From a virus (taxonomy: Duplodnaviria; Caudoviricetes), in IMG/VR virus record IMGVR_UViG_3300035562_000082, positions 53,595 through 117,594 of that record: a stretch of DNA of 64,000 nt; one strand, written 5' to 3'. Positions 2,702 to 45,800 of this stretch are shown piece after piece. Made by a program: the position numbers and the translations under genes. The notes beneath the pieces are model-generated. The model was not told where the DNA came from, made no database searches, and worked only from the letters and a program-made list of their open reading frames with translations. The first letter of the stretch is position 1, and each line of letters opens with the position of its first letter.

Positions 2702-2785
2702 ATGACGATCGTCTGTGGTGTGGTGCTCGCGGTGTTCCTCGTGGTCTGCCTTGTGGGTTGTGCGGCTAGCGAGGGTTTCTACTGA
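2702..2785 (+). CDS. 27 aa hydrophobic peptide with possible lipobox (LVGC)
   Basis: AGGAG RBS; MTIVCGVVLAVFLVVCLVGCAASEGFY; stop overlaps the next start (TGATG). Confidence 0.5.
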   Translation: MTIVCGVVLAVFLVVCLVGCAASEGFY

Positions 2786-4755
2786 TGGCCATCGAGTTCT
2801 ATCCGATTACCGAGTCTCTGCTGCCGGAGAACGCGAACAAAGAGTTCCTGGGTAGCAAGGGCTATTTCCTGTGGTGGATGGCCCAGCAAGGACTTCCAGT
2901 TCCCCCGGCCGTAGTTTTGCCGACGACCGTTTGTCGTGAGTACTGGACGAAGCCCAAGTCGGTAATGCGTGAGGTTCGATCCACGGTCATTCAGATTGCC
3001 GCGTACTTTCAGAAGCAATGGGGGTACATGCCGTTGTTGGCCGTTCGTTCTGGCGCAGCGAATTCGATGCCGGGCATGATGGACACCATCCTGAACGTCG
3101 GACTCGATCCCGCGAACGAAGAGTTCTGGCGCAAGCGCCTGGGCGATAGCTGCTACGACAATTGTCGGCATCGGTTGATCACCATGTACGGCGATGTCGT
3201 CAAGGGCTTGGACCGACAGGAGTTGAAGGACCGCAGTGTGCAGGAGGCGCTGGCGTACTATCAGAAGGCCATGGGTGAATTCCCGGGGTTCAGAGACCAG
3301 CTAGTGGGCGCTGTTGAGGCGGTGTTGAAGTCCTGGAACACTGATCGGGCGAAGTTCTACCGCAGCAAGTACAAGATCTCCGATGATGGTGGAACGGCCG
3401 TTGTTATTCAGGCCATGGTCTTTGGCAACCTGAACAAGAACAGTGGTTCGGGTGTGATGTTCACCCGCAATCCGATTACAGGAGAGAACGAAGCCACGGG
3501 GAATTTTTTGGCCATGGCCCAGGGTGAGGACGTGGTGGGTAATGCGCTCGCGCCGAATTTGAAGGCCATGGGCAAAAGCCATCCGAAGGCCGCGAAGAGT
3601 GTGTTGGCGCTTGCGACCAAGCTTGAACACACGTTGAAGGACATGCAGGACGTGGAGTTCACGGTGCAGGATGGGGAGGTGTGGCTGTTGCAAACGCGCA
3701 CGGGCAAACGCGAAGTCCGGGCAGCGGTGAAGATCGCGTACGACATGGTGCACGAGCAGTTGATCACCGTGCAAGAGGCGGTCAAGCGCGCAAACCCTCG
3801 TCAGTTGGATCTTCTACAGCAACGGGCAGTGGCCCCGACGTTTACTAAAGCCCCGACGTTCATTGGCATGCCCGCGTGTTCGGGCGCGGTGGTGGGTAAA
3901 CCGGTGTTCACCGCACAAGCGGCAATCGATTGCCAGGAACCGTGTATCCTGGTGCGCAAGAACACCGATGTGGATGACATCGAGGGCATGGTCGCTGCGG
4001 CGGGGATCCTGGCCATGACCGGTAGCGAAACCTGTCATCCGGCGATAGTGGCCAGGGGCATGAACAAACCGTGCGTAGTGGCGCTCAAGCAATCGCTGGA
4101 GGTGTTCAATAACGTGGATCGTATTTCGATCGATGGTGCGACCGGTCGGGTGTGGTTGGAGGCCGTGCCCATGGTCGAGGCCGATAACACGGACTTGGTT
4201 CGGGCATTTCAGTCGATGATGATTCGGGCGTTGGATGTTGTTCCGGTGTCCGATACACCGATTGAGGGCGTGAACACCGTGTTTCTTGATCTAGGAGGAC
4301 GGTTGCACGATCAAGGACTGGTATTGAGCATGGTGATGGCCGCGCTGGATGCGGCGGATACCGTGTACGTGGACTGCCGGTGGGCCGATAGGCCGGAGGC
4401 CGAGCGATCGATGATGGACATGTTTTACCACAATTGCAAGTACGAACAGCAGTTTGTGCAGTTCCTGGACGAACATGTACCGGCGGAGAAACTTAGTAAG
4501 CTGGTGTTGCTGACCAATCAAAAGCCGACGAAAATACAGGTAATGAGTTGTGCCACGGGCTTGGCGGACTTGATCATGGCCAATGGCTGGATAGCAATTG
4601 AGCCCGGGCATGAACTTGGGTTCGCGGATCCGCAGGTGTCCAAGGTCTTGTCGTGGCAAAAGGCTGATGGACTACAGATTTTGTACTTGAATCATCATCG
4701 TGCAGATGGCCGATCGGTGTTGAGCCCCGAGCAGGTCATGCAGTTGCTAGGGTAG
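2785..4755 (+). CDS. Pyruvate phosphate dikinase-like protein (ATP-grasp + phospho-His swivel domain, no PEP/pyruvate TIM barrel)
   Basis: GLPVPP, VRSGA-x2-SMPGMMDTILNVG, QAMVFGN, FTRNP-x-TGE, QGEDVV, DVEFT...LLQTR; His domain TCHPAIVARGMNKPCV; unrelated ~190 aa C-terminus. Confidence 0.85.
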   Translation: MAIEFYPITESLLPENANKEFLGSKGYFLWWMAQQGLPVPPAVVLPTTVCREYWTKPKSVMREVRSTVIQIAAYFQKQWGYMPLLAVRSGAANSMPGMMDTILNVGLDPANEEFWRKRLGDSCYDNCRHRLITMYGDVVKGLDRQELKDRSVQEALAYYQKAMGEFPGFRDQLVGAVEAVLKSWNTDRAKFYRSKYKISDDGGTAVVIQAMVFGNLNKNSGSGVMFTRNPITGENEATGNFLAMAQGEDVVGNALAPNLKAMGKSHPKAAKSVLALATKLEHTLKDMQDVEFTVQDGEVWLLQTRTGKREVRAAVKIAYDMVHEQLITVQEAVKRANPRQLDLLQQRAVAPTFTKAPTFIGMPACSGAVVGKPVFTAQAAIDCQEPCILVRKNTDVDDIEGMVAAAGILAMTGSETCHPAIVARGMNKPCVVALKQSLEVFNNVDRISIDGATGRVWLEAVPMVEADNTDLVRAFQSMMIRALDVVPVSDTPIEGVNTVFLDLGGRLHDQGLVLSMVMAALDAADTVYVDCRWADRPEAERSMMDMFYHNCKYEQQFVQFLDEHVPAEKLSKLVLLTNQKPTKIQVMSCATGLADLIMANGWIAIEPGHELGFADPQVSKVLSWQKADGLQILYLNHHRADGRSVLSPEQVMQLLG

Positions 4756-5842: not shown

Positions 5843-6337
5843 ATGTTGGGAAATCTGAAACTTCCGTTGTACTTTGGTAGCCATTACATGGTCTGGGGTG
5901 GGCCGTACTTGGAACGCCCGCAGGGCATGGTGTCGGTCAAGCTCGCGCGGGAGATCAATGCGCCGGCTGACCTGGAACTTCCGATCAAGGACTTCAGTAC
6001 ACCCGAACAAGCGGCCACCGACGCGGTGATGCGTGTGGCTGTGGCGTTCATTCTACGAGGTGAACCGCTGTACGCTGGGTGCATGGGCGGTCGAGGTCGT
6101 ACGGGGTTGTTTCTGTCGCTGTTGGCCAAAGCCTTTGGCGTACGTAGTCCCGTGCAGTACGTGCGGGCGAACTACTACGAGCATGCGGTGGAAACCGTGC
6201 AGCAAATGGAGTTCGTGCGCGACTACCAGATTCCGTTGGACGTGCAGAAGGCCGTGCGACGTGCCAAGTGGCGGTCGTTGTTTTCGTTCGGGCGGAACAT
6301 GACGGTGTACAACGGGGTGTTCGCCCAGGCCGCTTGA
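5843..6337 (+). CDS. Dual-specificity/protein-tyrosine phosphatase family protein
   Basis: CX5R loop GCMGGRGRTG, PIKDFSTP acid loop, AVET-x2-Q. Confidence 0.85.
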   Translation: MLGNLKLPLYFGSHYMVWGGPYLERPQGMVSVKLAREINAPADLELPIKDFSTPEQAATDAVMRVAVAFILRGEPLYAGCMGGRGRTGLFLSLLAKAFGVRSPVQYVRANYYEHAVETVQQMEFVRDYQIPLDVQKAVRRAKWRSLFSFGRNMTVYNGVFAQAA

Positions 6338-6362
6338 CAGACGACGGTGTTTGTACTATAGT
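6334..6362 (+). promoter_or_regulatory. sigma70-type promoter TTGACA-N17-TATAGT
   Basis: Near-consensus hexamers with 17 bp spacer. Confidence 0.75.
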
Positions 6363-6389
6363 TTGAAGTACTCCAAGGAGTGGGGTGTT

Positions 6390-6827
6390 GTGGGCGGAAT
6401 TGATAGACAACGGTATTTAGTAGACCCTGCATATAGGGCTCATGTTACTGCTAATAACAGAGCTTCTTATGCTCGCAGACAAGCAATTAAAGGAAAGCTG
6501 GTTAAATCTATTGGTCCATGTGCGCCGCGTAAAAACGTTATTCCGTTGTCGGGCGTACAACATCATCATAGGCAGAGGTACAGTTTAGAACCTTGTGAAT
6601 TTGATCGTCTGTATGAAGAACAGGAAGGGAAGTGCGCTTGTTGTTTTTCGCTTTTTGTGGAACCGGGTAAACTCCATGTAGACCATGATCATGAATTGAA
6701 TAAAGTGCGAGGATTGTTATGCCATAAGTGTAATCGTGGTATTGGTCTACTTGGTGATACGTTAGAATCAGTTCAAAGGGCCGTTAGTTATTTATTGAAA
6801 TCCCAAGGAGTGGGAGTAAAAGAGTGA
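6390..6827 (+). CDS. Endonuclease VII-family HNH (homing) endonuclease
   Basis: Q-x-GKCACC...LHVDHDH...VRGLLCHKCNRGIG; visibly AT-richer than its flanks; GTG start chosen downstream of the promoter and AAGGAG. Confidence 0.85.
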   Translation: MGGIDRQRYLVDPAYRAHVTANNRASYARRQAIKGKLVKSIGPCAPRKNVIPLSGVQHHHRQRYSLEPCEFDRLYEEQEGKCACCFSLFVEPGKLHVDHDHELNKVRGLLCHKCNRGIGLLGDTLESVQRAVSYLLKSQGVGVKE

Positions 6828-12247: not shown

Positions 12248-14650
12248 GTGCTGTTGTTGTGGACGGTCCATCCATCTAGTCGAGCGCTCACGGCCGTCGG
12301 GCAGGTAATCCGTTATCACCAGGATCTGGAGGTCCAGGTACAGAACGACATGCAGGCCATCCCCAATCCTCCGGGGTTGCATGTGCTGTTGGCCATGGGC
12401 GGGGAGCCGCTGGAGGTCCTGCGTGGACAGAAGATCGTACAGAAGAACCGTACGATCACCAGCCTCAGGAATCAACCGATCGTCCTGCCCAATACTCAGG
12501 CCCGGGGGTTGATCACCTACAGTCCGGAGATCTCGGAATTCGACTACGGGCACTTCGTGGACCTTCAGTGCGATGTGGGGGCGGCCATCAGGTTGGCGAA
12601 GACCGGGACAATAGAACCTCAATTAGGAGACTATCAGTACGTACCGGATCTCCAGCAGGTTCGTCAAGACCTGGAGAACCATTATCAACACCTACAGCAC
12701 CCGGTGGACCTGGGGTTCGACACCGAGACCCGAGGGTTGGATCCGCTGGCCAAGGCCAAGCCCGATTGTCCACCGGGGTACATCATCAGTCTTCAGGTAG
12801 CGCATTTACCTGGACGTGCACAGGTTGTGTACTTTGAGAGCCTACAGCAGTTTACTCAGTGGCTGACCACGGGCACGAACCGACAGGACCTACAGTGGTT
12901 GTTGACCACGAACAAGATCAAGCTCAAGGGCGCGAACGGCAAGTACGATCTCAACTGGATCTACCAGCACACGGGTATCGAGTGCACGAACTACGTGTTC
13001 GACACCACGTTGGTGGGCAGCCTGTTGGACGAGAACCGATCGAACGGCCTGGACGTACACACCAAGATCTACGCACCGGCCCTTGGGGGCTACAGCGATG
13101 AGTTCGACCGCACGACCGACAAGAACCGCATGGACCTCGTACCACCGACCAAGCTTCTACCGTATGCAGCGGCGGACGCTGATGCTGTGCTCCAGGTGGC
13201 GGCGGTCATGCGCGAGCAACTACTACAGGATCCGGCGCTCACACGGTTCTACGTTCATCTACTGCATCCAGCGGCTAGGGCGTTTGAAGTGGTCGAGCGC
13301 ACGGGCATCCTGGTCGATCAACAGGCCATGGCCGAGCTTAGATCGGACTTGAACACCGAGATTCTGCAATTGATTGCCAAGGCCAAAGGGATTTTAGGTG
13401 GTCGAGTGATCGCCAAACACGGTGATCCGGAGAAGCTTGGTGGGCTTAACCTCACAAAGCCCAGTATGTTGTGCGACTTCATGTTCAGCCCTATGGGGTT
13501 GAACCTCACGCCCAGGCTGATGACCGCTGGTGGACCGGAGGGCAAGGGCGAGAAGAAACCCGCCACGTCCATGGAACACCTGATGATGTTCGAGGACGTA
13601 CCGGAGGCCCAGGAGTTTGTGCGGTTGATGAAGGACTATGGGAGCGCCACCAAGACCCTGAGTACGTACGTGATGAACACCGAGGGCACAAAGGGGTTCA
13701 TGACGTTCCTGCGATCGGACGGACGATTTCACCCGAGCTATTGGTTCTTCGTCGGCAACAAGGACGAGGATGAGGGCGGGGCGGTAACCGGTCGGTTGTC
13801 GTGCAGGGATCCGGCGTTTCAAACAGTGCCGAAGCTCACGAAGTGGGCGAAGAGAATCCGCAGGTGTTATCCAGCACCACCCGGGTATGTGGTGGTGGAG
13901 ATGGATTTCGTACAGGGCGAGTTGATGGTCATTGCCTGCTTGGCGAATGAACCGAAGATGATCCAGGCGTTCCTGGAGAACAAGGATATGCATGTGCTGA
14001 CCGGTAGCTCGATCGCCGGCATGACCTACGAACAGGTGCTGGCGCTCAAGCACACAGAGCCCGTGAAGTACGAACACATACGGTATCAGGCAAAGCCCGC
14101 GAACTTTGGATTGATCTACGGGCAGTTTGAGGAAGGGTTTAAGCGGTTTGCAGAGTTAAATTATGAACTAAAGATGTCGCTTGAGCGTGCAAAGGAGATT
14201 CGGAATGGTTTTTTTGAGTTGTATGAGGGATTGGTAAAGTACCATAAAGAAATCAAGGCGTTTGCGCACAGACATGGTCACGTGCGTAGTCCCCTTGGTA
14301 GAATCCGGCACCTGCCGTTGATCAACAGCAAGAACAACGTGATCAGACAGCATGCAGAGCGTCAGGCGGTCAACAGCCCGACGCAGGCCACGTTGTCGGA
14401 CATGCTGTTGCTGACCATTGCGTTGGAGCACCAGCAGGGGTTGTTCAAGCACGCACCGTGCTTTGCGGCTGTTCATGATGCCAAGTACTCGTACGTGCTG
14501 GAAGATCAGGTGACGACGGTCGTACCGCAGATGGTGGAGATCATGGAGCACCTGCCGTTTGAGAAATTCAACTGGAAGCCGCAGTTGGCGTTCAAGGCCG
14601 ACGTGAAGGTCGGGCTGAACATGGCGGATCTCAAGGAGTGGGTACAATGA
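12248..14650 (+). CDS. DNA polymerase, family A, with 3'-5' exonuclease domain
   Basis: ExoI FDTET, ExoII NGKYD, ExoIII YAAADA; TGRLS; motif A DFVQGEL, motif B RYQAKPANFGLIYG, NSPTQ, motif C VHD. Confidence 0.92.
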   Translation: MLLLWTVHPSSRALTAVGQVIRYHQDLEVQVQNDMQAIPNPPGLHVLLAMGGEPLEVLRGQKIVQKNRTITSLRNQPIVLPNTQARGLITYSPEISEFDYGHFVDLQCDVGAAIRLAKTGTIEPQLGDYQYVPDLQQVRQDLENHYQHLQHPVDLGFDTETRGLDPLAKAKPDCPPGYIISLQVAHLPGRAQVVYFESLQQFTQWLTTGTNRQDLQWLLTTNKIKLKGANGKYDLNWIYQHTGIECTNYVFDTTLVGSLLDENRSNGLDVHTKIYAPALGGYSDEFDRTTDKNRMDLVPPTKLLPYAAADADAVLQVAAVMREQLLQDPALTRFYVHLLHPAARAFEVVERTGILVDQQAMAELRSDLNTEILQLIAKAKGILGGRVIAKHGDPEKLGGLNLTKPSMLCDFMFSPMGLNLTPRLMTAGGPEGKGEKKPATSMEHLMMFEDVPEAQEFVRLMKDYGSATKTLSTYVMNTEGTKGFMTFLRSDGRFHPSYWFFVGNKDEDEGGAVTGRLSCRDPAFQTVPKLTKWAKRIRRCYPAPPGYVVVEMDFVQGELMVIACLANEPKMIQAFLENKDMHVLTGSSIAGMTYEQVLALKHTEPVKYEHIRYQAKPANFGLIYGQFEEGFKRFAELNYELKMSLERAKEIRNGFFELYEGLVKYHKEIKAFAHRHGHVRSPLGRIRHLPLINSKNNVIRQHAERQAVNSPTQATLSDMLLLTIALEHQQGLFKHAPCFAAVHDAKYSYVLEDQVTTVVPQMVEIMEHLPFEKFNWKPQLAFKADVKVGLNMADLKEWVQ

Positions 14651-15207
14651 CCGTCAAGAAGATCTTTCTGGGGCCTGTGGTGGGGATTGATGAACCAATG
14701 ACGGCAGAAAAGATAGTTAAAGCCGAGTTGTCTAAGGCATTGGCAAAGTTAGCGGATACTGCGATGATGTCCCTTGGACAAGGGTTTCAGACGTTCGACA
14801 ACACGCCCGAGGGTGAAGTTGCGTATCTCAAGACCAAGGTCACGCATTTGGAGATCATCATTGCGGAGTTCGTGGATAAACAGAGAGCGCAGTATCAACA
14901 TTTGATTGACTACACGCAGACGCAGGTGATGGAGCGTCTACAGGAGTTGGAGAACAATAGTGCGCCTCAAGTACTGTTTGCTCGACTTGAGGAGCTAGCG
15001 CTAGGACAAAAACAAGAAATAGATGTTGTTAGCAAGTACTGCGAACGACTGGAGATGCTGGAGGAACAAACTGCGGGCACGAACGCCAAGGTATTGGAGT
15101 TGGCAACCGAACTTTTTGCAAAGTGGGTTGCCTGCACCACACGGATTGAGCTTTTGGAACAACGGGTCCATGAGATTCAGCAGTTTTTGGTGCTCAAGAC
15201 GGCTTGA
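14647..15207 (+). CDS. Hypothetical coiled-coil protein
   Basis: ATGA overlap with the polymerase stop; heptad-rich. Confidence 0.65.
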   Translation: MTVKKIFLGPVVGIDEPMTAEKIVKAELSKALAKLADTAMMSLGQGFQTFDNTPEGEVAYLKTKVTHLEIIIAEFVDKQRAQYQHLIDYTQTQVMERLQELENNSAPQVLFARLEELALGQKQEIDVVSKYCERLEMLEEQTAGTNAKVLELATELFAKWVACTTRIELLEQRVHEIQQFLVLKTA

Positions 15208-15379
15208 CTTTGCGATTGAACTGCGCGGCCGATTCGTACGTGAGTTGTGGGAACGTCGAAGAGTGATTGGTTTTGCGTGCGGGCAGAAACGCCAGCAGCC
15301 AGATCAGTCCGCAGGCAAGGAACGGCGTGAGACAGAAGCCGATGATCAGCGCCCAGGTAGGTCCGTCGGATAAGAACAT
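15194..15379 (-). CDS. Small membrane protein downstream of the pilin
   Basis: Long hydrophobic N-terminal segment; co-oriented with the pilin. Confidence 0.5.
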   Translation of the reverse strand: MFLSDGPTWALIIGFCLTPFLACGLIWLLAFLPARKTNHSSTFPQLTYESAAQFNRKVKPS

Positions 15380-15397
15380 GGTGGTCTTTCGTTTAGG

Positions 15398-15487
15398 TTG
15401 ATGGGGGCCGGTTATTCGATACCGGCAAACGTCGGCTCTCGTTTTTCGCCGATGTCATCGCAGCTTAGGGTGTGCGTGCCCGCCCAA
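15398..15487 (-). ncRNA. Putative structured RNA (three hairpins with a closing stem)
   Basis: Minus-strand stems CGCA/TGCG, TCGGC/GCCGA, GCCGG/CCGGC, enclosed by TTGGGCGGG...CCCCATCAA. Confidence 0.3.
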
Positions 15488-15488
15488 A

Positions 15489-15962
15489 TTAATGCTGGCA
15501 GGTCGCGGGTAGGAACGGATAGGCCGCAACGATAGCACCAGCGGCCGTACCATTGGCAGCCGTGGACGTACCGCAGGTCCAGGTCACCGTACCATCGGCA
15601 TTGCCAACGCCGAAGATCCCCAGGAACTTGCCGTCAAGGGTCGAGCCCGTAGCGCCGACGGTCGTTACTACGCCAGCCACCGTGGCACTGGCTTGGTTGT
15701 AGGAAATGGCGGTCATGTACTTGACGTTGGACGGCAGGGTGGTGCTGACCGGGCTGGCGGTAGTCGCCGGGAACGCCCCTTGCGATTGATAGGCTTCCGT
15801 CAGCGCGATCTTCGCGGCATCCAGGAACGTGATTTCCTCGGTGACCTTTGAGCGCGTCAGGTAGTTTTGATACTGCGGCAGGGCGATGGCCGCCAGGATG
15901 CCGATGATGGCAACCACGATCATCAACTCGATGAGCGTGAAGCCCGTTTGTTTACGTTGCAT
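15489..15962 (-). CDS. pilA: Type IVa major pilin
   Basis: [34 protein letters not shown] class III signal with E5; C-terminal Cys pair (WTCG...ATCQH); GAGGGA RBS before ATG 15962. Confidence 0.93.
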
Positions 15963-16008
15963 AGTCTGTCCCTCAGGTTTCCGGCTTATTGCCGGCAGGA
16001 AGATAGTA

Positions 16009-16024
16009 AGCAATGACCGTGCCA
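16009..16024 (-). promoter_or_regulatory. sigma54 (RpoN) -24/-12 promoter of the pilin gene
   Basis: Minus strand reads TGGCACGGTCATTGCT, matching TGGCAC-N5-TTGC. Confidence 0.85.
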
Positions 16025-16077
16025 GGAGCTAAGTACTTGAGTTGCAAAGGCTTTTGATTTCCTAGCCAAGTGGATGA

Positions 16078-16135
16078 TGACAAATTGCGTCACCTTGAGT
16101 GACGTAGCTTGTCACGTGGGTGACGTACATTGGCA
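16078..16135. promoter_or_regulatory. Tandem TGAC-N7-GTCA palindromes, putative enhancer-binding protein (PilR-type) sites
   Basis: TGACAAATTGCGTCA (16078), TGACGTAGCTTGTCA (16100), TGACGTACATTGGCA (16121), phased at 21-22 bp upstream of the sigma54 promoter. Confidence 0.6.
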
Positions 16136-16195
16136 ATTGATTGCCCGGAGGGGTTGGGTGGCGTAGACTGCCGGCGTTCACACAATGGGGTGCGT

Positions 16196-18268
16196 ATGGC
16201 AATCAAGATCGAGGTCAAAGAACAGGTCAAGCTGCCGGAAAAAACTCAGAAGGCCGAGCCCAAGACGACGTTTATGCCCATGGTAATCGGGGGTGACACG
16301 TATTTGGTGCTCAGTCAGTCAAAGGTCGAGCTTGAGGACGAGTTCGCCAGCCTGTATTACACAACGCAAAATCAGTCAAACATTTTCTTGATGCCGCCGT
16401 TTGATCCCCAGGTGTTGTTGAACTTCGTGCAGACGAACAACGTGCTCAATCAGTGCATCGAGGCCATGGAGGTCAACGTCGATGCCACGGGACATGAGTT
16501 TGTGCCGTCGGAGGAAGCAGCGGCGAAGATCGAAAAAAAGCAGGAGGAGTGGAAAGCCCAGCAGATCAAGAAGCAGACCGATCGAGCTACGAAGGTCGCG
16601 GATTACCATTCAAAGCTGGATCAAGCGAATCATCAGTTTCAGACGGGTGCGACCATGGGCGACGACGCTACGCCTGTGCCCGTGGATTGGCCACCGCCGT
16701 TGGCGTACGAACCGAAATTACCGGACCCAGAGTTTGGAACCGGCATTGACCCCGAGGAGTTGATCAAGGCCAAGGCGTTCTTCAACGAGCCGTATCCCAA
16801 TCTGTCGTTCAGTAAGATCCGGCGGAAGTTGCGGCGAGAGCTTGAGAGCGTGGGCTACGCGTACTTGGAGATCCTACGAAACCTGGAGGGGGAGATCGTG
16901 GGTCTACGGAACATCGAGACCCATCAAACACGGATGGTCAAGCTCGATGCACCGATCATGGTGGAGAAGACCATCAGTCGAAACGGCAAGGACGTGAAGC
17001 TCCAGATGTGGGAACGTCAACGTCGATTTGCCCAACGGGTGGCGCTCAAGCAGCTTGTGTACTACCGGGAGTTTGGGACTGCCCGGCACGTCGATCGAAA
17101 CAACGGTAAGTGGGACATTCCGGCTACTGGGAGTGATTCCGGTTATCAAGTGGCGATCGAGAACCGGGGAACGGAGTTGATTGTCTTCGGCATTCATCCG
17201 GATGTTACGACCCCGTACTTTCTTCCACGGTGGATCAACGAGTTGCCGAGCGTCATTGGCAATCGTAAGGCCGAGGAATTGAATCTTGAGTTCCTGGACA
17301 GCGGGGGCATGCCGCCGGCAATCATCTTCGTGCAGGGCGGAACACTGGCAAAGGACGCGAGCGATCAACTGAAGATGTACCTGTCGGGCAAGAACAAGAA
17401 CAAGCATCGAGCGGTGGTGGTTGAGGCGCAGTCCAGTAGCGGGTCGTTGGAGAGCGCCGGCACCGTGCAGGTGAAGGTCGAGCGCTTTGGCGCCGAGCGT
17501 GCGATGGACGCGATGTTCACGAAGTACGACGCGCAGACCGAAGAGCACATTCGTGTGGGCTTCAGGATCCCGCCGTTGTTCTTGGGCAAGGCCGCTGACT
17601 ACAATTTTGCAACGGCTCAAACGGCGTACATGGTGGCCGAAGAACAGGTGTTTCAGCCTGAGCGCAATGCGTTTGACGAACAGATCAACAGCATGATCAT
17701 CCGCACCATGGGGTTCAAGACCCTGAGGTTCAAGAGCAATCCCGTGACGTTGGCCAGTGCCGCTGATCAGATCAACGCCATGACCCAGGCCAAGGGCACG
17801 GTCACCAACGAGTCGTTCGTGGAGGCCATTGAGGAGATCACGGGGTTTGAGCTTGAGCCCCAGCAGCAACAACAGCCACCGGGAGACCCGCAGGATCAAC
17901 CGCCGCCCAAGCCCGGGATGATGCCCAAGGGACCGAGCGTACAGGGTGGGGCAGTGGGGACCGCCGGGAACATCAGCGGGGCGTCTGATAGTGCAGGGGC
18001 TTTGCAGTCGAACACCGGGACCGCTAAGTACGCGCGGGAAGGTCGATCGGCCACGGAGTTGATTGACCTCGCACAGGACTATATGGCGATGAAGGGCCTG
18101 ACGAAGAAGCGTGACCTGGGGGCCGTCAGACAGGCGCAGGTGACGGTCGAGGTTTCGCGGTTGACCAAGGCCGAGCGCCGGGCGTTTGATTCGCTGGTGG
18201 CCATCAGCACCTACGGACAGGATGATCCGGATCTGGTTCGAGTGGTGGCCCATGCACACAGACGCTGA
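16196..18268 (+). CDS. Portal protein (PBSX-like) with Pro/Gln-rich insertions
   Basis: LESVGYAYLEILRN, YFLPRWI, F-x2-GGMPPAIIFVQGG, FRIPPLFLG...YNFATA...EQVFQPER; first gene of the head module. Confidence 0.85.
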   Translation: MAIKIEVKEQVKLPEKTQKAEPKTTFMPMVIGGDTYLVLSQSKVELEDEFASLYYTTQNQSNIFLMPPFDPQVLLNFVQTNNVLNQCIEAMEVNVDATGHEFVPSEEAAAKIEKKQEEWKAQQIKKQTDRATKVADYHSKLDQANHQFQTGATMGDDATPVPVDWPPPLAYEPKLPDPEFGTGIDPEELIKAKAFFNEPYPNLSFSKIRRKLRRELESVGYAYLEILRNLEGEIVGLRNIETHQTRMVKLDAPIMVEKTISRNGKDVKLQMWERQRRFAQRVALKQLVYYREFGTARHVDRNNGKWDIPATGSDSGYQVAIENRGTELIVFGIHPDVTTPYFLPRWINELPSVIGNRKAEELNLEFLDSGGMPPAIIFVQGGTLAKDASDQLKMYLSGKNKNKHRAVVVEAQSSSGSLESAGTVQVKVERFGAERAMDAMFTKYDAQTEEHIRVGFRIPPLFLGKAADYNFATAQTAYMVAEEQVFQPERNAFDEQINSMIIRTMGFKTLRFKSNPVTLASAADQINAMTQAKGTVTNESFVEAIEEITGFELEPQQQQQPPGDPQDQPPPKPGMMPKGPSVQGGAVGTAGNISGASDSAGALQSNTGTAKYAREGRSATELIDLAQDYMAMKGLTKKRDLGAVRQAQVTVEVSRLTKAERRAFDSLVAISTYGQDDPDLVRVVAHAHRR

Positions 18269-18428: not shown

Positions 18429-21400
18429 GTGGATCCCCGAGTACTGCTAAAGCTTGAAGCCGCGTTGGTTCGGCGGTTACGCGCAAGCTGGAAGCGCGAG
18501 AGCACTCCTGTTTACCTGAAGATCCAACAGGCGATCACCGATTGTGATTGGCCCACGGCCGTCCAGCAGGTGTACAAACTGGACATGACGCACGTGGGGG
18601 ATGAGAACCGCGAGTGGATCCGGCATATGCTGCTGTCATTCGCGGTTTTTGGTGCGAAGATGGCGAACAAGCGCGGACCGTTGTTCTTGAACGCCGGTAC
18701 GTATGATCAACGACTCGATCATATTACGGACATCATTTGTCAGTACTTTGAACATCGAGCAACGGCCTTGGTACAAGCCCGGGCATTGCAATCAATTGCC
18801 GAGGCCGAACGCGAGGCCAAGACCCAGGTGGCGTACAAGTTCGAGGAGGACGAAGCCCGGGATGTCCATGGACGCTGGACAGCCGGGGGTCCGTCGTTGT
18901 GGCACAGTGGGCAGTTTGAAGCCCAGATATCTAAGGTCGGTAAGACCTACGACAACAAGGCCGATATGGCGTTGTTGAGTAAACGTGGAGCGACGCTTGA
19001 GAAGAGGTCGTCTAAAATTCAACAGGATTTTGCTTATCAAGACGATAACCCAGAGGGGTTTGATCAAGAACTAGAGAAACTGAATGACCAGTGGACGGCG
19101 GTAGTGCTTGCTCAAGAAGGGCTCAAGCGTTTCCACGATAAACCAACGGAAACGATGTTCATTGCCCGGGACGGGGACCGACTGTCTGGGTTGGCCTATG
19201 GGTTTGTGCGGGGCGATCAAATGGAACTTGATCGTCTGGCGTCGTTTCAACGGGGGGCTGGGAGTAAGCTGTTGGTGGAGTTCGAACAGAATGCGCGCGA
19301 TCGTGGACTACAGTCGGTCGTATTGCACTCAACGCATTATGCTGAGGGGTTTTACACCGCACACGGTTACACGTCCAAGGGCAAGAACAATGAATATGGG
19401 ATTGTGGAGTTCGAGAAAGATCTGACGAAGACCAAGACCGTGAAGAAGATTGATCCAGAAGAAATTGCGTGCTTGGCAGTGCCGGCAGACTGGAAGCCCA
19501 GGGCTATCAAGGGCGATCTGCCAGGGCATGAGTTCCATGGTAATCAATGGACTCAAGCAGCCGGGCAGTTCAAGTACGATCCAGCGGCCAAAGCTTGGAC
19601 AGGGGGAACGGATGTTCAGCATCAGAGATTACGAGATCTACGAGTCCCCCCTGCATGGGCCAACGTCCGCCTTAACCCAGACGCTGACGCTGCTCTTCAA
19701 GCACTCGGAGTTGATGTTAAAGGCCGTACGCAGTACCTGTATAGTGCGGCCCACAGTGAACAAGCGGCGGCCGAAAAGTTTCAGCGGCTGAAGGACTTCA
19801 ATGCCGTAGCACCGAAGGCCATCAAGCAGGCGTTGGCCGATATGCAGAACAAACAACTGGCGTCGGAGAAGCGAGATGCGGCGGCCGTGGTGTACCTGAT
19901 TGGCAAGACCGGACTGCGTGTGGGATCGGACGCGGAGACCGGGGGTGCGGTCAAGGCCCATGGGGCAACGACGTTGTTGGGCCAGCACGTGACGTTGCTG
20001 GGCGATAAACTGTCGTTGGATTTCGTGGGTAAGAAGGGCGTGCAGATTCACAAGGAGTTGACGGACCCAAAGCTCGCACAGTATTTGAAGGGCAAGGTCA
20101 AGTCCATGGGCGATCGGTTGTTCAACACCACCGACAGTGCTGTACGAACGTATCTCAAGGACATCACGGGCGATCAGTTCAAGGTCAAGGACTTCCGGAC
20201 ATGGCACGGCACGTCCACGGCACTCCAGGAGTTGAAGGACCGACCGGTGCCGAAGACCGCCACGGAGTTCAAACGTGTTGTGTCGGAGGTTGCCAAGGTC
20301 GTGGCCAAGCACTTGGGTAACACTCCCGCTGTGGCGAAGAGCGCGTACATCGATCCGGCGGTTTGGGGTGGTTGGGGCGGGAAGTTCGCGGTGACCAAGC
20401 AGGAGGTTGATCAACCGTTGATAGACGAGTTCCTGGACACCCATCAGTACGATCAAACTGGAAACTGGCGGCTTTTGCCTGATGTTGAGGAAGAGGATCT
20501 GGAAAGCGCAATTAAAGACGACATGGGCAGTGCTGATCTTCAAACGGCGGGCGCACTCAATCCCATGCAGGCCCAAGCTCCGGTACAGAGCCGACGATCG
20601 TTGAGAAGACGCAGGCGACGCAAGGGCGAGACCAGGACGCTGTACGTCCATCGACCGGTGATCAACGGTCAGACGATTGTTGATTGGGCGAAGACCCAGG
20701 GATTTGAAACGTGTTTACCACTGGAGAAAATGCATGTCACAATCGCCTACAGCAAGCAGCCGGTGGACTGGAACGCCATGGGTGATGCTGACACCCGTAA
20801 TCTGCACGTGGATGATCAGGACGACCGCGAGGTCAAACCCTTGGGTAGCGATGGAGCGGTGGTGCTCAAGTTCGTGTCCAAGAAACTCCACGATCGGTGG
20901 AAACACCTGTGTGGCGCGGGAGCATCTTGGGATTACGAGGGTTACCAGCCACACGTTACCATCACTTGGGAAGCCCCGAAAGGACTTGAGTTATCAACGG
21001 TTGAGCCGTACACAGGACCGATTGACCTCGGCCCAGAACAGTTTGAAGAACTTGATGAAGATTGGGGGGACAAGGTAGTTGAGAAGGCCGATGAGACCGG
21101 TCGGTATGTGACGCCGTTTACGTCGTTCGCCGATGAAGGTGAAGGACTGGTGCAGATGGTCAGCAGTTTGAACAGCAGTCGCATGGCCACCTGGGGGTTC
21201 ACGGCCGAGGCCGATCAACTGGGGGTTGGACGTTATCGGTTGACGGCCGTCCTCGATGGGCGTACTAGTGAGTTCTGTCGGATAATCGACGGCCGGGTGT
21301 TTGACGTTGACGACGCACGACGCAAGGTCAATGAGGTACTGGCGGTTCAGGACCCGTCGGATCTTGAGCAGGTGCAGCCATGGCCTGATCAATCGAAGGC

Positions 21401-22955
21401 CGCGATTGCTGAGTACGAAGGTATGTCCGACGATGATCTTGTAGCCCTGGGATTGAACATTCCGCCATTTCACCCAAACGCAGTTTTTGCTGGGACTACG
21501 TTTGTTAGTTATGGGGCGTTAGATGAAATGATCGGGGCTGACTATCATGGTCCCGCGATTTTGATTAAAACCTCTGAGGGTGCAGAGTTTACCATCGGCC
21601 CTAATCACCCGATACTTACACAGTGTGGAATGCGGTTGGCTAATTGCTTGTGTGAAGGCGATTACTTGGTCTACGACACTAGGGTGGAAATGTTTGATTT
21701 TATTTCCAGTGGCCGATCCAATTCTAATTTCAAGAACGTTCCATTCGTTGAGGATGCTTTTGAGTCGTTGTTGCCGATGGGCAAATTGACGCGGGTTGCC
21801 GCTACCACTGACGATTTCCATGGCGACGGGGTATTCTGTGAGGGTGAAATCCAGATTGTAATTCCTGCAAACCGTTTGTTGTTTAAATTTGATTCCTTGG
21901 GCGTTGAGCATTTCCGAGAGTATGGTTTCATTAAACCCAATGCCTCTTTGGCTAATGTATCTACTGATGGCTCTGGCTACCCTGACATCGAGCCCATCTA
22001 TTTGTCCGCGCCGGGCAGCGTGGGCAGCAGATTGGCGGGTGTGTTTAGACTCCATCGAGTAGTGAGTGTAACGCGAACACAATATAAAGGTAAAGCATTT
22101 GATGCTACAACTGCCTCTGGTGTTTACAACTGTGACGGATTTGTAGTAAGTAACTGTCGTACGATGTGCGAAATGGTGGACGCCGATGAGGGTGAGCCCG
22201 AGGAGTTGGCGGTGACCGGCCCGTTGGACAAACAGCAGTCAACGGCCGAGGATTTTGCGGCCGTGGGGGTAGAGGTCACGGACGATCAGCTTGCGTATTG
22301 GAATGACGCTGTGGGGTTAGATCCTCAAAAGGCGTTGGAAACGATGTTCGCGGGTGATGTAGAGGCGTTGACCGCCAAGCTTGATGAAGGACAGGATCCA
22401 ATTGATGTAGACGAGGGTGGGAGTATCAGCTTTGTGGCCGCAGGCGATCTCGGAGACGGTACGTACGATCTTCAGAGTGTGTTCGATCCGTTTACCGGCA
22501 CGTTGTATTTGACCGACGCGGATTTCACGACCACCGATCCTCAGGTGGTGGCGGAGTTCATCAGCCGGGTGTTCGACGGCATGATCGACACCGGGATGTC
22601 CGCTGGGGCAACGGCCTTGGCCATTGACGTGGGGGATTCCGCGTATGAGTACGCGAAGATGGGTTTCAGACCCGATCCTGGTGATTGGGAGGACATACGG
22701 GGTAACGCCATGGACGCCCTGCAAAGCGGGGATCTCCAAGAGGTGTTCGACAGCCTGGACGATGATCAAAAGAATCAGGTGTTGAATACCTTGAACAACC
22801 CGGACGAACATGCGGTGCAGGATCTGGCGAACTTGCCGATTGAATTTCAAGGGCAGTCCGTGGGAGAATTGATATTGCAATCGGTGTCCGGGCAGTTCAC
22901 GTTGGATCTGACGGACGATGATGCGGTTGAGCAGGCAAAGAGCTATTTTGAGTGA
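18429..22955 (+). CDS. MuF (SPP1 gp7-like) head morphogenesis polyprotein: GNAT, topoisomerase IB, Acb1-like 2H phosphodiesterase, intein-split MuF, acidic C-terminal domain
   Basis: GNAT QRGAGSKLL...AEGFYTAHGY; TopIB GRTQYLY, GLRVG, KDFRTW, HLGNTPAVAKSAYIDP; 2H HVTIAYS and HVTITW; MuF LDGRTSEFC...PPFHPN/CRT. Confidence 0.88.
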   Translation: MDPRVLLKLEAALVRRLRASWKRESTPVYLKIQQAITDCDWPTAVQQVYKLDMTHVGDENREWIRHMLLSFAVFGAKMANKRGPLFLNAGTYDQRLDHITDIICQYFEHRATALVQARALQSIAEAEREAKTQVAYKFEEDEARDVHGRWTAGGPSLWHSGQFEAQISKVGKTYDNKADMALLSKRGATLEKRSSKIQQDFAYQDDNPEGFDQELEKLNDQWTAVVLAQEGLKRFHDKPTETMFIARDGDRLSGLAYGFVRGDQMELDRLASFQRGAGSKLLVEFEQNARDRGLQSVVLHSTHYAEGFYTAHGYTSKGKNNEYGIVEFEKDLTKTKTVKKIDPEEIACLAVPADWKPRAIKGDLPGHEFHGNQWTQAAGQFKYDPAAKAWTGGTDVQHQRLRDLRVPPAWANVRLNPDADAALQALGVDVKGRTQYLYSAAHSEQAAAEKFQRLKDFNAVAPKAIKQALADMQNKQLASEKRDAAAVVYLIGKTGLRVGSDAETGGAVKAHGATTLLGQHVTLLGDKLSLDFVGKKGVQIHKELTDPKLAQYLKGKVKSMGDRLFNTTDSAVRTYLKDITGDQFKVKDFRTWHGTSTALQELKDRPVPKTATEFKRVVSEVAKVVAKHLGNTPAVAKSAYIDPAVWGGWGGKFAVTKQEVDQPLIDEFLDTHQYDQTGNWRLLPDVEEEDLESAIKDDMGSADLQTAGALNPMQAQAPVQSRRSLRRRRRRKGETRTLYVHRPVINGQTIVDWAKTQGFETCLPLEKMHVTIAYSKQPVDWNAMGDADTRNLHVDDQDDREVKPLGSDGAVVLKFVSKKLHDRWKHLCGAGASWDYEGYQPHVTITWEAPKGLELSTVEPYTGPIDLGPEQFEELDEDWGDKVVEKADETGRYVTPFTSFADEGEGLVQMVSSLNSSRMATWGFTAEADQLGVGRYRLTAVLDGRTSEFCRIIDGRVFDVDDARRKVNEVLAVQDPSDLEQVQPWPDQSKAAIAEYEGMSDDDLVALGLNIPPFHPNAVFAGTTFVSYGALDEMIGADYHGPAILIKTSEGAEFTIGPNHPILTQCGMRLANCLCEGDYLVYDTRVEMFDFISSGRSNSNFKNVPFVEDAFESLLPMGKLTRVAATTDDFHGDGVFCEGEIQIVIPANRLLFKFDSLGVEHFREYGFIKPNASLANVSTDGSGYPDIEPIYLSAPGSVGSRLAGVFRLHRVVSVTRTQYKGKAFDATTASGVYNCDGFVVSNCRTMCEMVDADEGEPEELAVTGPLDKQQSTAEDFAAVGVEVTDDQLAYWNDAVGLDPQKALETMFAGDVEALTAKLDEGQDPIDVDEGGSISFVAAGDLGDGTYDLQSVFDPFTGTLYLTDADFTTTDPQVVAEFISRVFDGMIDTGMSAGATALAIDVGDSAYEYAKMGFRPDPGDWEDIRGNAMDALQSGDLQEVFDSLDDDQKNQVLNTLNNPDEHAVQDLANLPIEFQGQSVGELILQSVSGQFTLDLTDDDAVEQAKSYFE
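21480..22154 (+). mobile_element. Intein (225 aa, Ala1, ends Ser-Asn, Cys+1) inserted in the MuF HPN|CR motif
   Basis: Removing AVFAGT...FVVSN restores PPFHPNCRT; block B TIGPNHPILT; block F/G YKGKAFDATT...VVSN/C; AT-richer than flanks. Confidence 0.88.
21519..22082 (-). CDS. DUF559/Vsr-like PD-(D/E)XK endonuclease nested antisense within the intein
   Basis: ETILSEMLNAQGIKFKQQ...YNLDF...VAMEIVSG...RLKSILNEWNVLEI follows the E...Q...Y-x-x-DF...A-x-E...W-x-V pattern; ORF lies wholly inside the intein; alternative ATG at 22055. Confidence 0.65.
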   Translation of the reverse strand: MCSRYTHYSMESKHTRQSAAHAARRGQIDGLDVRVARAISRYISQRGIGFNETILSEMLNAQGIKFKQQTVCRNYNLDFTLTEYPVAMEIVSGSGNPRQFAHRQQRLKSILNEWNVLEIRIGSATGNKIKHFHPSVVDQVIAFTQAISQPHSTLCKYRVIRADGKLCTLRGFNQNRGTMIVSPDHFI

Positions 22956-42632: not shown

Positions 42633-42823
42633 AGATCACGATCAACCACATGGCGGAGTTTGGGTACTGTGTGCCCGGGGTTCGGCAGTGGTTTGCTCAA
42701 CGGAATCTTGATTTCCGTGATTTTTGTCGTAATGGGTTGGACGAACAGGTGTTCGTGCAGTCTGACGATGCGATGGCCCTGCAATTGATTGCCAAAGTAA
42801 AACAGCGGCATGGGCAAGAGTAG
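42629..42823 (+). CDS. Small tail assembly protein
   Basis: YC-x-x-GVRQWF...LDF-x-DF-x-x-NG...DAMA, typical between BR0599 and the central tail protein. Confidence 0.7.
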   Translation: MKITINHMAEFGYCVPGVRQWFAQRNLDFRDFCRNGLDEQVFVQSDDAMALQLIAKVKQRHGQE

Positions 42824-45800
42824 CACGCCGATCATCGGCTATCGCTACTACCTGGGCACGCACTTGGTGTTGTGCCACGGTCCTGTTGACTCTGTGAACC
42901 ACTTTCGTCAGCCGGACAACAATACGATCATCTGGCCGAATTATTTGCCCGATAGTCCAGAAACTCCGGTTTTGAACCCCGCCCATGGAGTACTGAGTTT
43001 CAACAACAACGGGTACTACACACCCGGTCCGATTCGCGCAAGCAGCGTTGACAACTTCATCAACGCCCCTGGTGCCTATGGGGGAGTCCAGCGCGAGGGT
43101 GGGGTGATGGGGTTCTTTGACGTAATGATGGGCGAGCCCGCACAAGGTCCGAACGCCTATCTCACGTCAAAGATCATCGGTTTGGTCGGTAGTCCGGCTG
43201 GTACGTACCTGGGTTCAGGCGCGCTTCAATCGCCGCCTTGGGATGGTAATTGGAATACCAACGCGACGCCCACTAGTGCGGTCAATGGCGCGGTGTATTT
43301 GATTTTGCCCCCGGCTTCTGGGGGTTGGTTGGGCAGGGACAATCAGATAGCCACTTGGAATTCCGCTGGCGGGCCGACCGGTGGGCCTGGAGTACCTACG
43401 GGCCAGACTAATGGTATTTGGGAGTACTCGGGTCTTCCGGCGGTGGTGGGCGTGACGTTTGAGGTCGTGCCCACCAGTACGTTCTACACCTGGAATGGTG
43501 GGGCGTGGGTGATCCAAAAGGCTCTGCAACCGGCGTATCGTGGGGTTAGCGGTGTGGTGATGAAGCGCTGTTTCTTTGCGGCGTTCAATCCGTACATCAA
43601 GACCTTGGCCATTGAGTGCACGCGCATTCACAAGGCGCAAGACGGTACTGCCCAGTGGAATGACGCACAGGCGGAGGTGCCTCCGGGTTCAGGTGATATG
43701 AACCCCGCGCATATCATCTACGAGTGTTTGACCAACGGTGCATGGGGTAAGGGCTATAGCCAGACGCAGTTGGATATGGCGAGCTTCACCGCCGCTGCAC
43801 AGACGTTGTTCAACGAAGGACTTGGGCTGTCGTTGTTGTGGGACCAATCGAATTCCATTGATGATTTCATCAATCAGGTGATGGAGCACGCGGATGGTAG
43901 TGTGTTTGTCCATCAACAGACGAGCCTGTGGACGATCAAACTGGTTCGCAATGACTATGTGATCAGCACGCTGCCGGTGTTGGATCCGACGAACATCATC
44001 AGCATGACCAACGCCACTCGGCCGTTGACGGTTGAGCTTACGAATCAGGTGACGGTCACGTACTTGGATCGCGGCACGCATCAGCCAACGCCGATCACGA
44101 TTCAGAATATTGCGGCGTTGGAGGCCGCTAATGGACTGGTGAATGAAAAAGCACTGGATCGGCAGGGCATCAGCAATCAAACACTGGCATTGCGCGTGGC
44201 TCAACGGGATCTGCATGAACTGGGCAGCGCGTTGTTCAAGTGCAAGCTGGAGTGTAACCGCACGGCCTGGGTGTTGACCGTCAGTCAGCCGTTTGTACTG
44301 AATTGGCCGGACCTTGGACTATTGAATCTGGTGATGCGGCCGGTGAACATCGACTTTGGACTGCTGGAAGACGGCAAGATCGTACTAGATTGCATTGAGG
44401 ACGTGTTTGCACTACCGGCCGTGTCGTATCAGGCACCACAGACCACCCAATGGACGAGCCCGTATAGCCCGCCGATCAATCTGCCGGCGCAGTACGTGCA
44501 GGCTATGCCGTTTTACACGGTGGTCCGTAGTATTTTCGGCGGTAGCATGACCGCGTACAACACGCTGGCGGCAGCGGACGATCTGTTGGTAACCGCAGGA
44601 TCGGTCAGTGCTGGTGATGTACTGAGCGTCCGGGCGTTGGTCAGCGTCGATGGTGGGAGGACGTACGCTCAGCATGGATCGACTCCGGTTTGTCCGTCGG
44701 CGTTGATAAGTGCGTCTATGGGCTATCTGGATACCGTTGCGACGTTGACCAACGGTATTGACCTGACGAACGTGGTGATCGGCACGTACGCGGCGATCGA
44801 CGACGAGGTGGTGGTCGTCAATTCATTGGATCCGGTATCCGGAACGTTGGGCCTTGGTCGTGGATGTCTGGACACCATTCCGCAGCAGCATCTGGCCAAT
44901 GCCTTGATCATGTTCGTTGATGGCTGGCAGACGCTGGACACTACTGAATATGCGCTTGGCCAGAATCTGCATGTCAAGCTGTTGGAGGTCACGTCCAGGG
45001 GTACGCTCGATCTGTCGGCCGCGACTGAGCACTCGATCACGTTCAATGAACGGCAGATCCGGCCGTATCCGCCGGGGAATTTCAGGATCGACGGTGTGGG
45101 GTTTCCGGCGACCGAAACGCCTACGGGTCTGAACATGACCGTCAGTTGGGCGCACCGTGATCGCACGCAACAACTGGCTGCGCCGATTGACACCACGCAG
45201 GGGAATATTGGGCCGGAGGCGGGGGTTACGTACAACCTACGGGTGTACCTGTCGGCCAGCAACACGCAGATAGCGAATTACCCGGGGTTGACCACCACCA
45301 GTCAGCTTGTGCCGTTACCCAATGGTAATTATCCAGTGCGGGTCGAGCTTGAGTCCGTGCGCGGTGGGATCCTGTGCTGGCAGCCATACGCGTACACGTT
45401 TAACGTCGTACAGACATTGGCACCGAATTACGCGTTGTTGTTGAGCGCGAATTTGGTGTTGACCGGTTGGCCGCCGCTGTCGATCACCCCTTTGTACTAT
45501 GTACCGGGAACCGGATCGATACAGTTTACTGGTTATGCCCCGATTCCGTTTGTTCCGACGGTTCCACAGCCGGGAACTGGGTCAATGGTGCTGGCGGGTT
45601 ATGCACCGACGGTGGTGAACACGTTGTTGACGACTCCGGGTGTTGGGTCTCTGGGGTTGACTGGGCACGCGCCGTTGACGTTGTTTAGTCACGTTATTCC
45701 GTCAGGGAATTTGGCGGTTACAACCTACGCTCCAATTGTACCGGCTGGGCCGGGTGTGGATGCACTGTTCATCACCGGTTATGCACCGACGGTGATGATT

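Follow-up and report, generated by a model that had tools for sequence, protein, structure and literature searches.

The stretch of DNA analysed here (64,000 nucleotides, hereafter the window) corresponds to positions 53595-117594 of a 117,594-bp IMG/VR virus record that is rated complete by CheckV. At 69 kb of this record, an open reading frame on the minus strand runs from an ATG at 15962 of the window to a stop codon at 15489-15491 (15489-15962, stop codon included), and its translation is a protein of 157 residues (P0001). The ATG, which has a ribosome-binding site read from the sequence as GAGGGA (15969-15974, minus strand) six bases upstream, was preferred to the TTG at 16013 that the list of open reading frames gives as the start, and the latter was rejected.

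The protein has all the hallmarks of a pilin precursor. Its class III signal peptide consists of a short basic leader of seven residues ending in glycine (MQRKQTG, G-1), followed by F+1 and E5 (MQRKQTG/FTLIE). Pfam recognises the Pilin (1.7e-12) and N_methyl (2.3e-10) families, the latter with 40 bits against a cut-off of 21.2 bits, and PHROGs assigns the protein to phrog_27437 and phrog_3433, the second of which is annotated as 'pilin' in the moron category. The only two cysteines, Cys130 and Cys155, bracket a C-terminal loop (the D-region), and the corresponding alignment columns are conserved in most pilin relatives; the mature N-terminus, E5 included, is almost invariant among 26 relatives. 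An AlphaFold (AF2) model built from these 26 sequences (pLDDT 88) predicts a long N-terminal helix (residues 10-61) and a head domain of four strands. A Foldseek search with this model returned 1ay2 and 2hi2 at the top (probability 1.00, TM 0.65-0.68), and the best matches in a sequence search of the PDB were Neisseria PilE chains (4e-21 to 7e-20). The Neisseria PilE and type IVa major pilins (1ay2, 2hi2 and 8p3b) have the same predicted fold and 32-35% identity with the phage pilin and share with it the short leader, E5 and the C-terminal disulfide loop, whereas the surface loops are divergent. Judging from sequence and model, the gene is a complete type IVa major prepilin gene, closest to Neisseria PilE, and its product looks assembly-competent. 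The initial annotation had described a complete pilA-like gene with a prepilin cleavage site, E5 and a disulfide D-region, preceded by a ribosome-binding site; the leader, F+1/E5, Cys130/Cys155, Pfam and the AF2 model agree with that description, and GAGGGA is the ribosome-binding site in question.

The pilin gene lies among typical phage genes. Long open reading frames of the window are nearly all on the plus strand, and the pilin gene runs against this flow. On its left are PolA, a family-A DNA polymerase (12248-14650), and a coiled-coil open reading frame (14638-15207); on its right are the portal gene (16196-18268) and then a MuF-type head protein of 1,508 residues, as identified with Pfam and PHROGs. 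The location between polymerase and portal, against the direction of phage transcription, had been reported at the outset and is borne out by these coordinates. Further virion genes are those for J-like tail proteins, for a tape measure of 1,226 residues and for a major tail protein that carries an Ig-like domain, whereas a tail sheath was not seen among the ten large virion open reading frames scanned; by its gene content, the phage has a layout of the siphovirus type.

A few further genes of the window deserve mention in their own right. According to Pfam, the 1,508-residue protein next to the portal (18429-22955) contains a Mu F-like head domain along with GNAT acetyltransferase, type IB topoisomerase and Acb1-like (anti-CBASS) domains. 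A PPDK-like kinase (2785-4755) has only the ATP-grasp and phospho-His domains in Pfam and matches phrog_18609 ('kinase', 4e-140). A J-like tail protein (42810-47204) is 34-38% identical over its N-terminal 864 residues to tail proteins of siphophages, namely the Pseudomonas siphophages PaMx11 and ZC01, a Stenotrophomonas phage and Sphingomonas phages, a range too broad to name a host, and a tail-fibre candidate of 403 residues had no match in the phage collection.

Downstream of the pilin gene and on the same strand, a short open reading frame (orf61, 15194-15379) encodes a candidate single-pass membrane protein of 61 residues, with one hydrophobic helix in its translation. It has no family match in Pfam or PHROGs and no relative in 45 related phages, and neither it nor orf189 matches any family above the curated cut-off. 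No convincing intrinsic terminator was detected after the pilin gene or between it and orf61, which is a candidate for being possibly co-transcribed with the pilin.

Upstream of the pilin gene lies an exact sigma-54 promoter of the -24/-12 type, TGGCAC-N5-TTGC (TGGCACGGTCATTGC, 16010-16024, minus strand), whose 3' end is 47 nt upstream of the ATG. This is the single match to that motif in the 64-kb window as well as in the whole 117.6-kb genome, and it is the only sigma-54-like box of the genome with dyads upstream; the promoter proposed in the initial annotation is therefore exact and correctly placed before the pilin gene. The predicted 5' leader contains a short palindrome, CCGGC-loop-GCCGG (15985-16002, minus strand, inverted repeat I2).

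Further upstream, a candidate enhancer (upstream activator sequence, 16078-16135) is formed by three dyads of the TGAC-N7-GTCA type, or five half-sites, that may be PilR-type sites. The dyads at 16078-16092 and 16100-16114 are exact, and the third (16121-16135) is degenerate, reading TGAC-N7-GGCA. Their starts are spaced by 22 and 21 bp, and the TGAC/GTCA half-sites at 16078, 16089, 16100, 16111 and 16121 follow a period of 11-11-11-10 bp, that is about one helical turn. The dyads start 54-111 bp upstream of the sigma-54 box, against an expected distance of roughly 60-150 bp upstream of the -24 element. Of the three TGAC-N7-GTCA-type sites phased at 21-22 bp that had been listed initially, the phasing was recovered and two sites are exact, the third being degenerate.

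The right half of the third dyad runs into a palindrome of the phage, GCAATTGATTGC, at 16133-16144, just before the portal gene. This element is dispersed over the window in 13 exact copies, where 0.44 matches would be expected even with one mismatch tolerated, and the copy between enhancer and portal marks the right edge of the captured DNA. The idea that the third dyad is a chance overlap with the palindrome was rejected in part, as this dyad is a 79% direct repeat of the second with an offset of 21 bp. No flanking direct repeats that would hint at the mechanism of insertion were found around the pilin insert.

Between enhancer and promoter are two partial IHF-like boxes (16030-16059, minus strand), which had also been pointed out beforehand. 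They are indeed present, at 16030-16042 and 16047-16059, and are weak, with one and two mismatches to WATCAANNNNTTR, respectively; this is close to chance, the numbers expected per 60 bp being about 0.06 with one mismatch and 0.45 with two. Their position matches that of the IHF site of the RpoN-dependent pilE gene (PMC6528607).

Dyads of this kind were then counted, as exact TGAC-N7-GTCA matches, in 148 bacterial and metagenomic pilin loci, where the zone 40-350 bp before the pilin start was compared with the remainder of these loci. Upstream of pilin genes the motif is 23-fold more frequent (0.876 per kb versus 0.039 per kb elsewhere), and it occurs there in 36 of the 148 loci, usually with an A/T-rich centre and 120-340 bp before the start codon. 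Moreover, the control region of the window aligns with the upstream regions of four soil-metagenome pilin genes (L129, L133, L135 and L138), three of which belong to the clade that is sister to that of the phage pilin. The columns that are invariant in this alignment with bacterial pilA promoters are GAC-N7-GTCA-N6-GTGAC and TGGCACGG. Three of these contigs (L133, L135 and L138) carry tandem pilin genes, and the downstream copies each come with a GTGAC/GTCAC dyad array, a TGGCACGG box and a conserved structured leader of their own.

Control of pilA or pilE by RpoN, PilR (or Npa) and IHF is established (PMC6058289; PMC6528607). As in the PilS-PilR/RpoN system of Pseudomonas aeruginosa pilA and the Nps-Npa/RpoN/IHF system of pilE in commensal Neisseria, the start codon of the phage gene is preceded at about 50 nt by a GG-N10-GC promoter and, further upstream, by an activator array, the two being separated by a possible IHF site. 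The half-sites differ: that of the phage is (C/T)GTCA, arranged as TGAC-N7-GTCA, whereas the consensus quoted for P. aeruginosa PilR is TGT-N11-ACA (PMC8035640), which is absent as such from the dyad region. A second difference is that the phage element, unlike the pilA and pilE control systems, is not beside pilB, pilC, pilD or pilS/pilR. Position and enrichment suggest that a PilR-type activator binds the dyad array. On this comparison the layout of enhancer and promoter is that of chromosomal pilA genes, and as it is shared with the chromosomal pilA promoters of the sister clade, the control region probably came in together with the gene. Since the dyads are of the kind found before bacterial pilA genes, regulation by the RpoN and a PilR-type activator of the host is the natural reading, and the dyad enrichment and the promoter alignment lend good support to the proposal that the phage pilin is wired into the RpoN/PilR circuit of the host.

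The origin of the gene can be narrowed down less far. The nearest pilins, 57-71% identical, are all metagenomic, and a quick maximum-likelihood tree built from 120 proteins placed the phage pilin within a supported clade of 22 members that contains metagenome proteins only, the pilins of Methylococcales and Ralstonia falling in other clades. At least one relative from the clade (L134) is clearly chromosomal and adjoins ileS, lspA and ribF. Another relative (WNFI01658334.1, positions 5998-6465 of locus L127), 66% identical to the phage pilin, is without both cysteines; its neighbours are a resolvase/invertase, a holin with three transmembrane segments and ORFans, and it may sit on a mobile element. 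Among 400 sampled genomes of Burkholderiales, the order around a Rubrivivax genome, the best match reached 50% identity, and a scan of contigs with generic N-terminal pilin peptides yielded pilins at most 40% identical. When 50,697 GenBank phage records were searched with the pilin by tblastn, nothing matched at 1e-5, to which the low-complexity filter may contribute, and no close relative of the pilin turned up in a single-protein scan of IMG/VR. The initial annotation had expected the pilin to identify the likely host group, and this expectation did not hold, as the 22-member clade includes no named organism and the best match in the 400 genomes is at 50%. The promoter does not point to a host either, the TGAC-N7-GTCA dyad being generic among beta- and gammaproteobacterial pilA promoters. 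As far as the sequence goes, the host is probably one of the bacteria that use RpoN and PilR for pilA.

The history of the slot was analysed in 45 related phages, whose portals are 27-54% identical to that of the present phage (45-54% in 28 of them). PolA and portal are neighbours in these genomes, separated by a gap of 0.3 to 6 kb that often contains reverse-strand open reading frames lacking family matches; many of the relatives (L003-L037) have one to several of them, encoding 70-300 residues and without a Pfam match, in the 1-2 kb before the portal, and Pfam likewise recognised nothing in ten reverse-strand open reading frames taken from the slot of the relatives. On this comparison, the space between polymerase and portal is an accessory-gene slot that behaves as a site for reverse-strand cargo. 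None of the 45 phages has a pilin gene within 8 kb of the portal, and neither an exact sigma-54 box nor a box with dyads was found in 558 kb of their sequence. The pilin gene, missing from the relatives and inserted between conserved genes, thus has the distribution of a moron, and it has a promoter of its own, its downstream side being where an intrinsic terminator was not detected. The nearest cultured relatives according to the DNA polymerase (65% nucleotide identity) are the Delepquintavirus phages DLP3 and DLP5 of Stenotrophomonas, a distant kinship. [quoted passage not shown] They are temperate phagemids of about 96 kb with ParB, whereas the present phage has a genome of 117.6 kb in which neither ParB nor an integrase was found, and unlike this phage they have no pilin gene that was matched by tblastn.

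Phage-encoded pilins as such are already known. Sztanko et al. (Cell Rep 2026; PMC12952977) reported that a prophage FimU (P-FimU) is incorporated into the pilus of P. aeruginosa and blocks phages that bind the pilus tip, and that full-length PilA homologues (P-PilA) occur in four groups of non-temperate phages as well as in Xylella prophages, besides truncated phage PilA proteins of 60 residues. The present phage, too, has a PilA homologue within its genome, as is the case for P-PilA, and shares with these systems a structural subunit of the pilus encoded by a phage; the role proposed there is the replacement of a host pilus component, by which pilus-binding phages are blocked. In that study the minor pilin P-FimU alone was tested and P-PilA was noted from sequence only, so far protection against pilus-dependent phages has been reported for no P-PilA (PMC12952977), and RpoN, PilR and PilS are not mentioned. 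Whereas p-fimU has its own conserved promoter region, recognised with a general promoter-prediction tool, here a major pilin gene keeps the sigma-54 promoter and enhancer of a host pilA gene. No paper on phage pilins wired to sigma-54 came up in our literature searches, and this wiring may be the new part. It may not be confined to one phage: 249 viral contigs of IMG/VR encode relatives of the pilin, and of the 77 that were examined, a sigma-54-like box lies within 350 bp ahead of the pilin start in 29 (mostly 50-95 bp before it), accompanied by a dyad in 14; two of these adjoin an integrase or an HTH regulator.

Taken with the arguments above, we regard it as rather probable that the locus is a moron, in which a bacterial pilA gene was captured with its native control region, on the reverse strand, in the polymerase-portal slot of a soil phage of the siphovirus type, and is switched by the host. 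The siphovirus-type layout counts as indirect support. Host sigma-54 RNA polymerase, activated by phosphorylated PilR on the TGAC/GTCA array, would transcribe the phage gene, and under this control the phage pilin would be made only in cells that are actively making pili. Host PilD would then cleave and methylate the prepilin, and the host machinery would polymerise it into pili. The change in pilus surface would make pilus-binding phages, whether rivals or the phage's own progeny, adsorb less well. In addition, the conserved N-terminal helix may signal to PilS that the pilin pool is full and so lower the transcription of host pilA; such a feedback would shift the mix towards phage pilin, with gene copies rising as the phage replicates. 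We infer from the combined analysis that the phage pilin may act by re-coating the pilus or through PilS feedback. The initial annotation had proposed that the pilin swaps or poisons the pilus, with superinfection exclusion as a result, or represses host pilA; such effects on pili and phage sensitivity may occur, and P-FimU is a good precedent for them.

When this action would take place depends on the life cycle. Searches of the phage genome for a tyrosine integrase, a serine recombinase, ParB or an S24 repressor were negative, which makes long-term expression of the pilin in the manner of a prophage unlikely; the pilin would have to act during the lytic cycle, when host transcription may be impaired. 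A fuller scenario is put forward as tentative, namely that PilS-PilR-sigma-54 serves a probably lytic phage as a conditional switch, by which its pilin would be made only in actively piliated cells, those exposed to pilus-binding phages. Through PilS this pilin would silence the host pilin, and with the multiplication of the phage genome it would come to dominate the fibre; neither the infected cell nor its debris would then go on trapping rival phages or the phage's own progeny.

An explanation that shares part of this mechanism is that the pilin, rather than serving mainly for polymerisation, sits in the inner membrane, engages PilS and shuts down host pilA, the infected cell losing its pili as a consequence. 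PilS senses membrane pilin directly, as summarised in PMC6058289 with reference to Kilmury and Burrows (2016), and the near-invariance of the mature N-terminus with E5 is in line with such a decoy; the truncated 60-residue phage PilA could act only in this way or by poisoning assembly (PMC12952977). Nevertheless, the helix alone would be sufficient for this purpose, yet the present gene keeps the full globular domain and the disulfide loop, which are predicted to fold with confidence, and a decoy would repress its own PilR-dependent promoter, which would limit the effect. We consider that a pure decoy is unlikely.

Similarly unlikely, in our judgement, is that the pilin is a neutral passenger, host DNA captured recently and illegitimately at a hot spot of recombination, without benefit to the phage. 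It is true that the slot is highly variable, that the third dyad is cut into by the right junction, and that only one of the 46 phages of the family carries the pilin, so that conservation gives no support for selection. Against this, the insert is trimmed to the gene and its control region, with the frame, the ribosome-binding site, the promoter and two dyads intact; the GC3 of the gene (0.75) lies within the range of the phage (0.66 +/- 0.09, z = 1.1); the closest known pilin is only 68-71% identical, with sparse sampling; and pilins with sigma-54 boxes recur on other viral contigs.

Morons often confer conversion properties, and the pilin could instead endow the cell that carries it with a new property in adhesion, motility or DNA uptake. 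The relatives DLP3 and DLP5 are temperate and have conversion genes, but no gene for lysogeny or plasmid maintenance was found in the present genome, and we hold a benefit of this kind to the host to be quite improbable.

Finally, a chimeric assembly, with reads of a bacterial pilA gene wrongly joined into the phage contig, is hardly credible: short contigs of other organisms do match the conserved 5' coding stretch of the pilin at 15898-15945 with one mismatch, but a chimera would need two independent false joins between genes that are syntenic in relatives, and a second assembler (Logan) produced one contig of 16,850 nt that crosses 14400-16800 with zero differences and an even depth of 12.6, from a soil metagenome run that may be the source sample and is thus not fully independent. 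The junctions, which had been named among the points to check, thus very probably place the pilin inside the phage. The stretch was found in this one sequencing run only, and no RNA run is listed as containing it.

Type IV pili rank with the commonest phage receptors, and the swapping of a pilus component is a newly shown form of defence of one phage against another. The pilin described here, probably captured and switched by the host, offers a clean object for tests, as it consists of one gene and one promoter in about 650 bp; a limit is that it occurs a single time in its phage family. If phage major pilins are routinely placed on the PilR/sigma-54 switch, phages would tap a sensory circuit of the host and use it to time a change of its surface. 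Sigma-54 promoters, which are usually ignored in phage annotation, would then mark accessory genes under host control.
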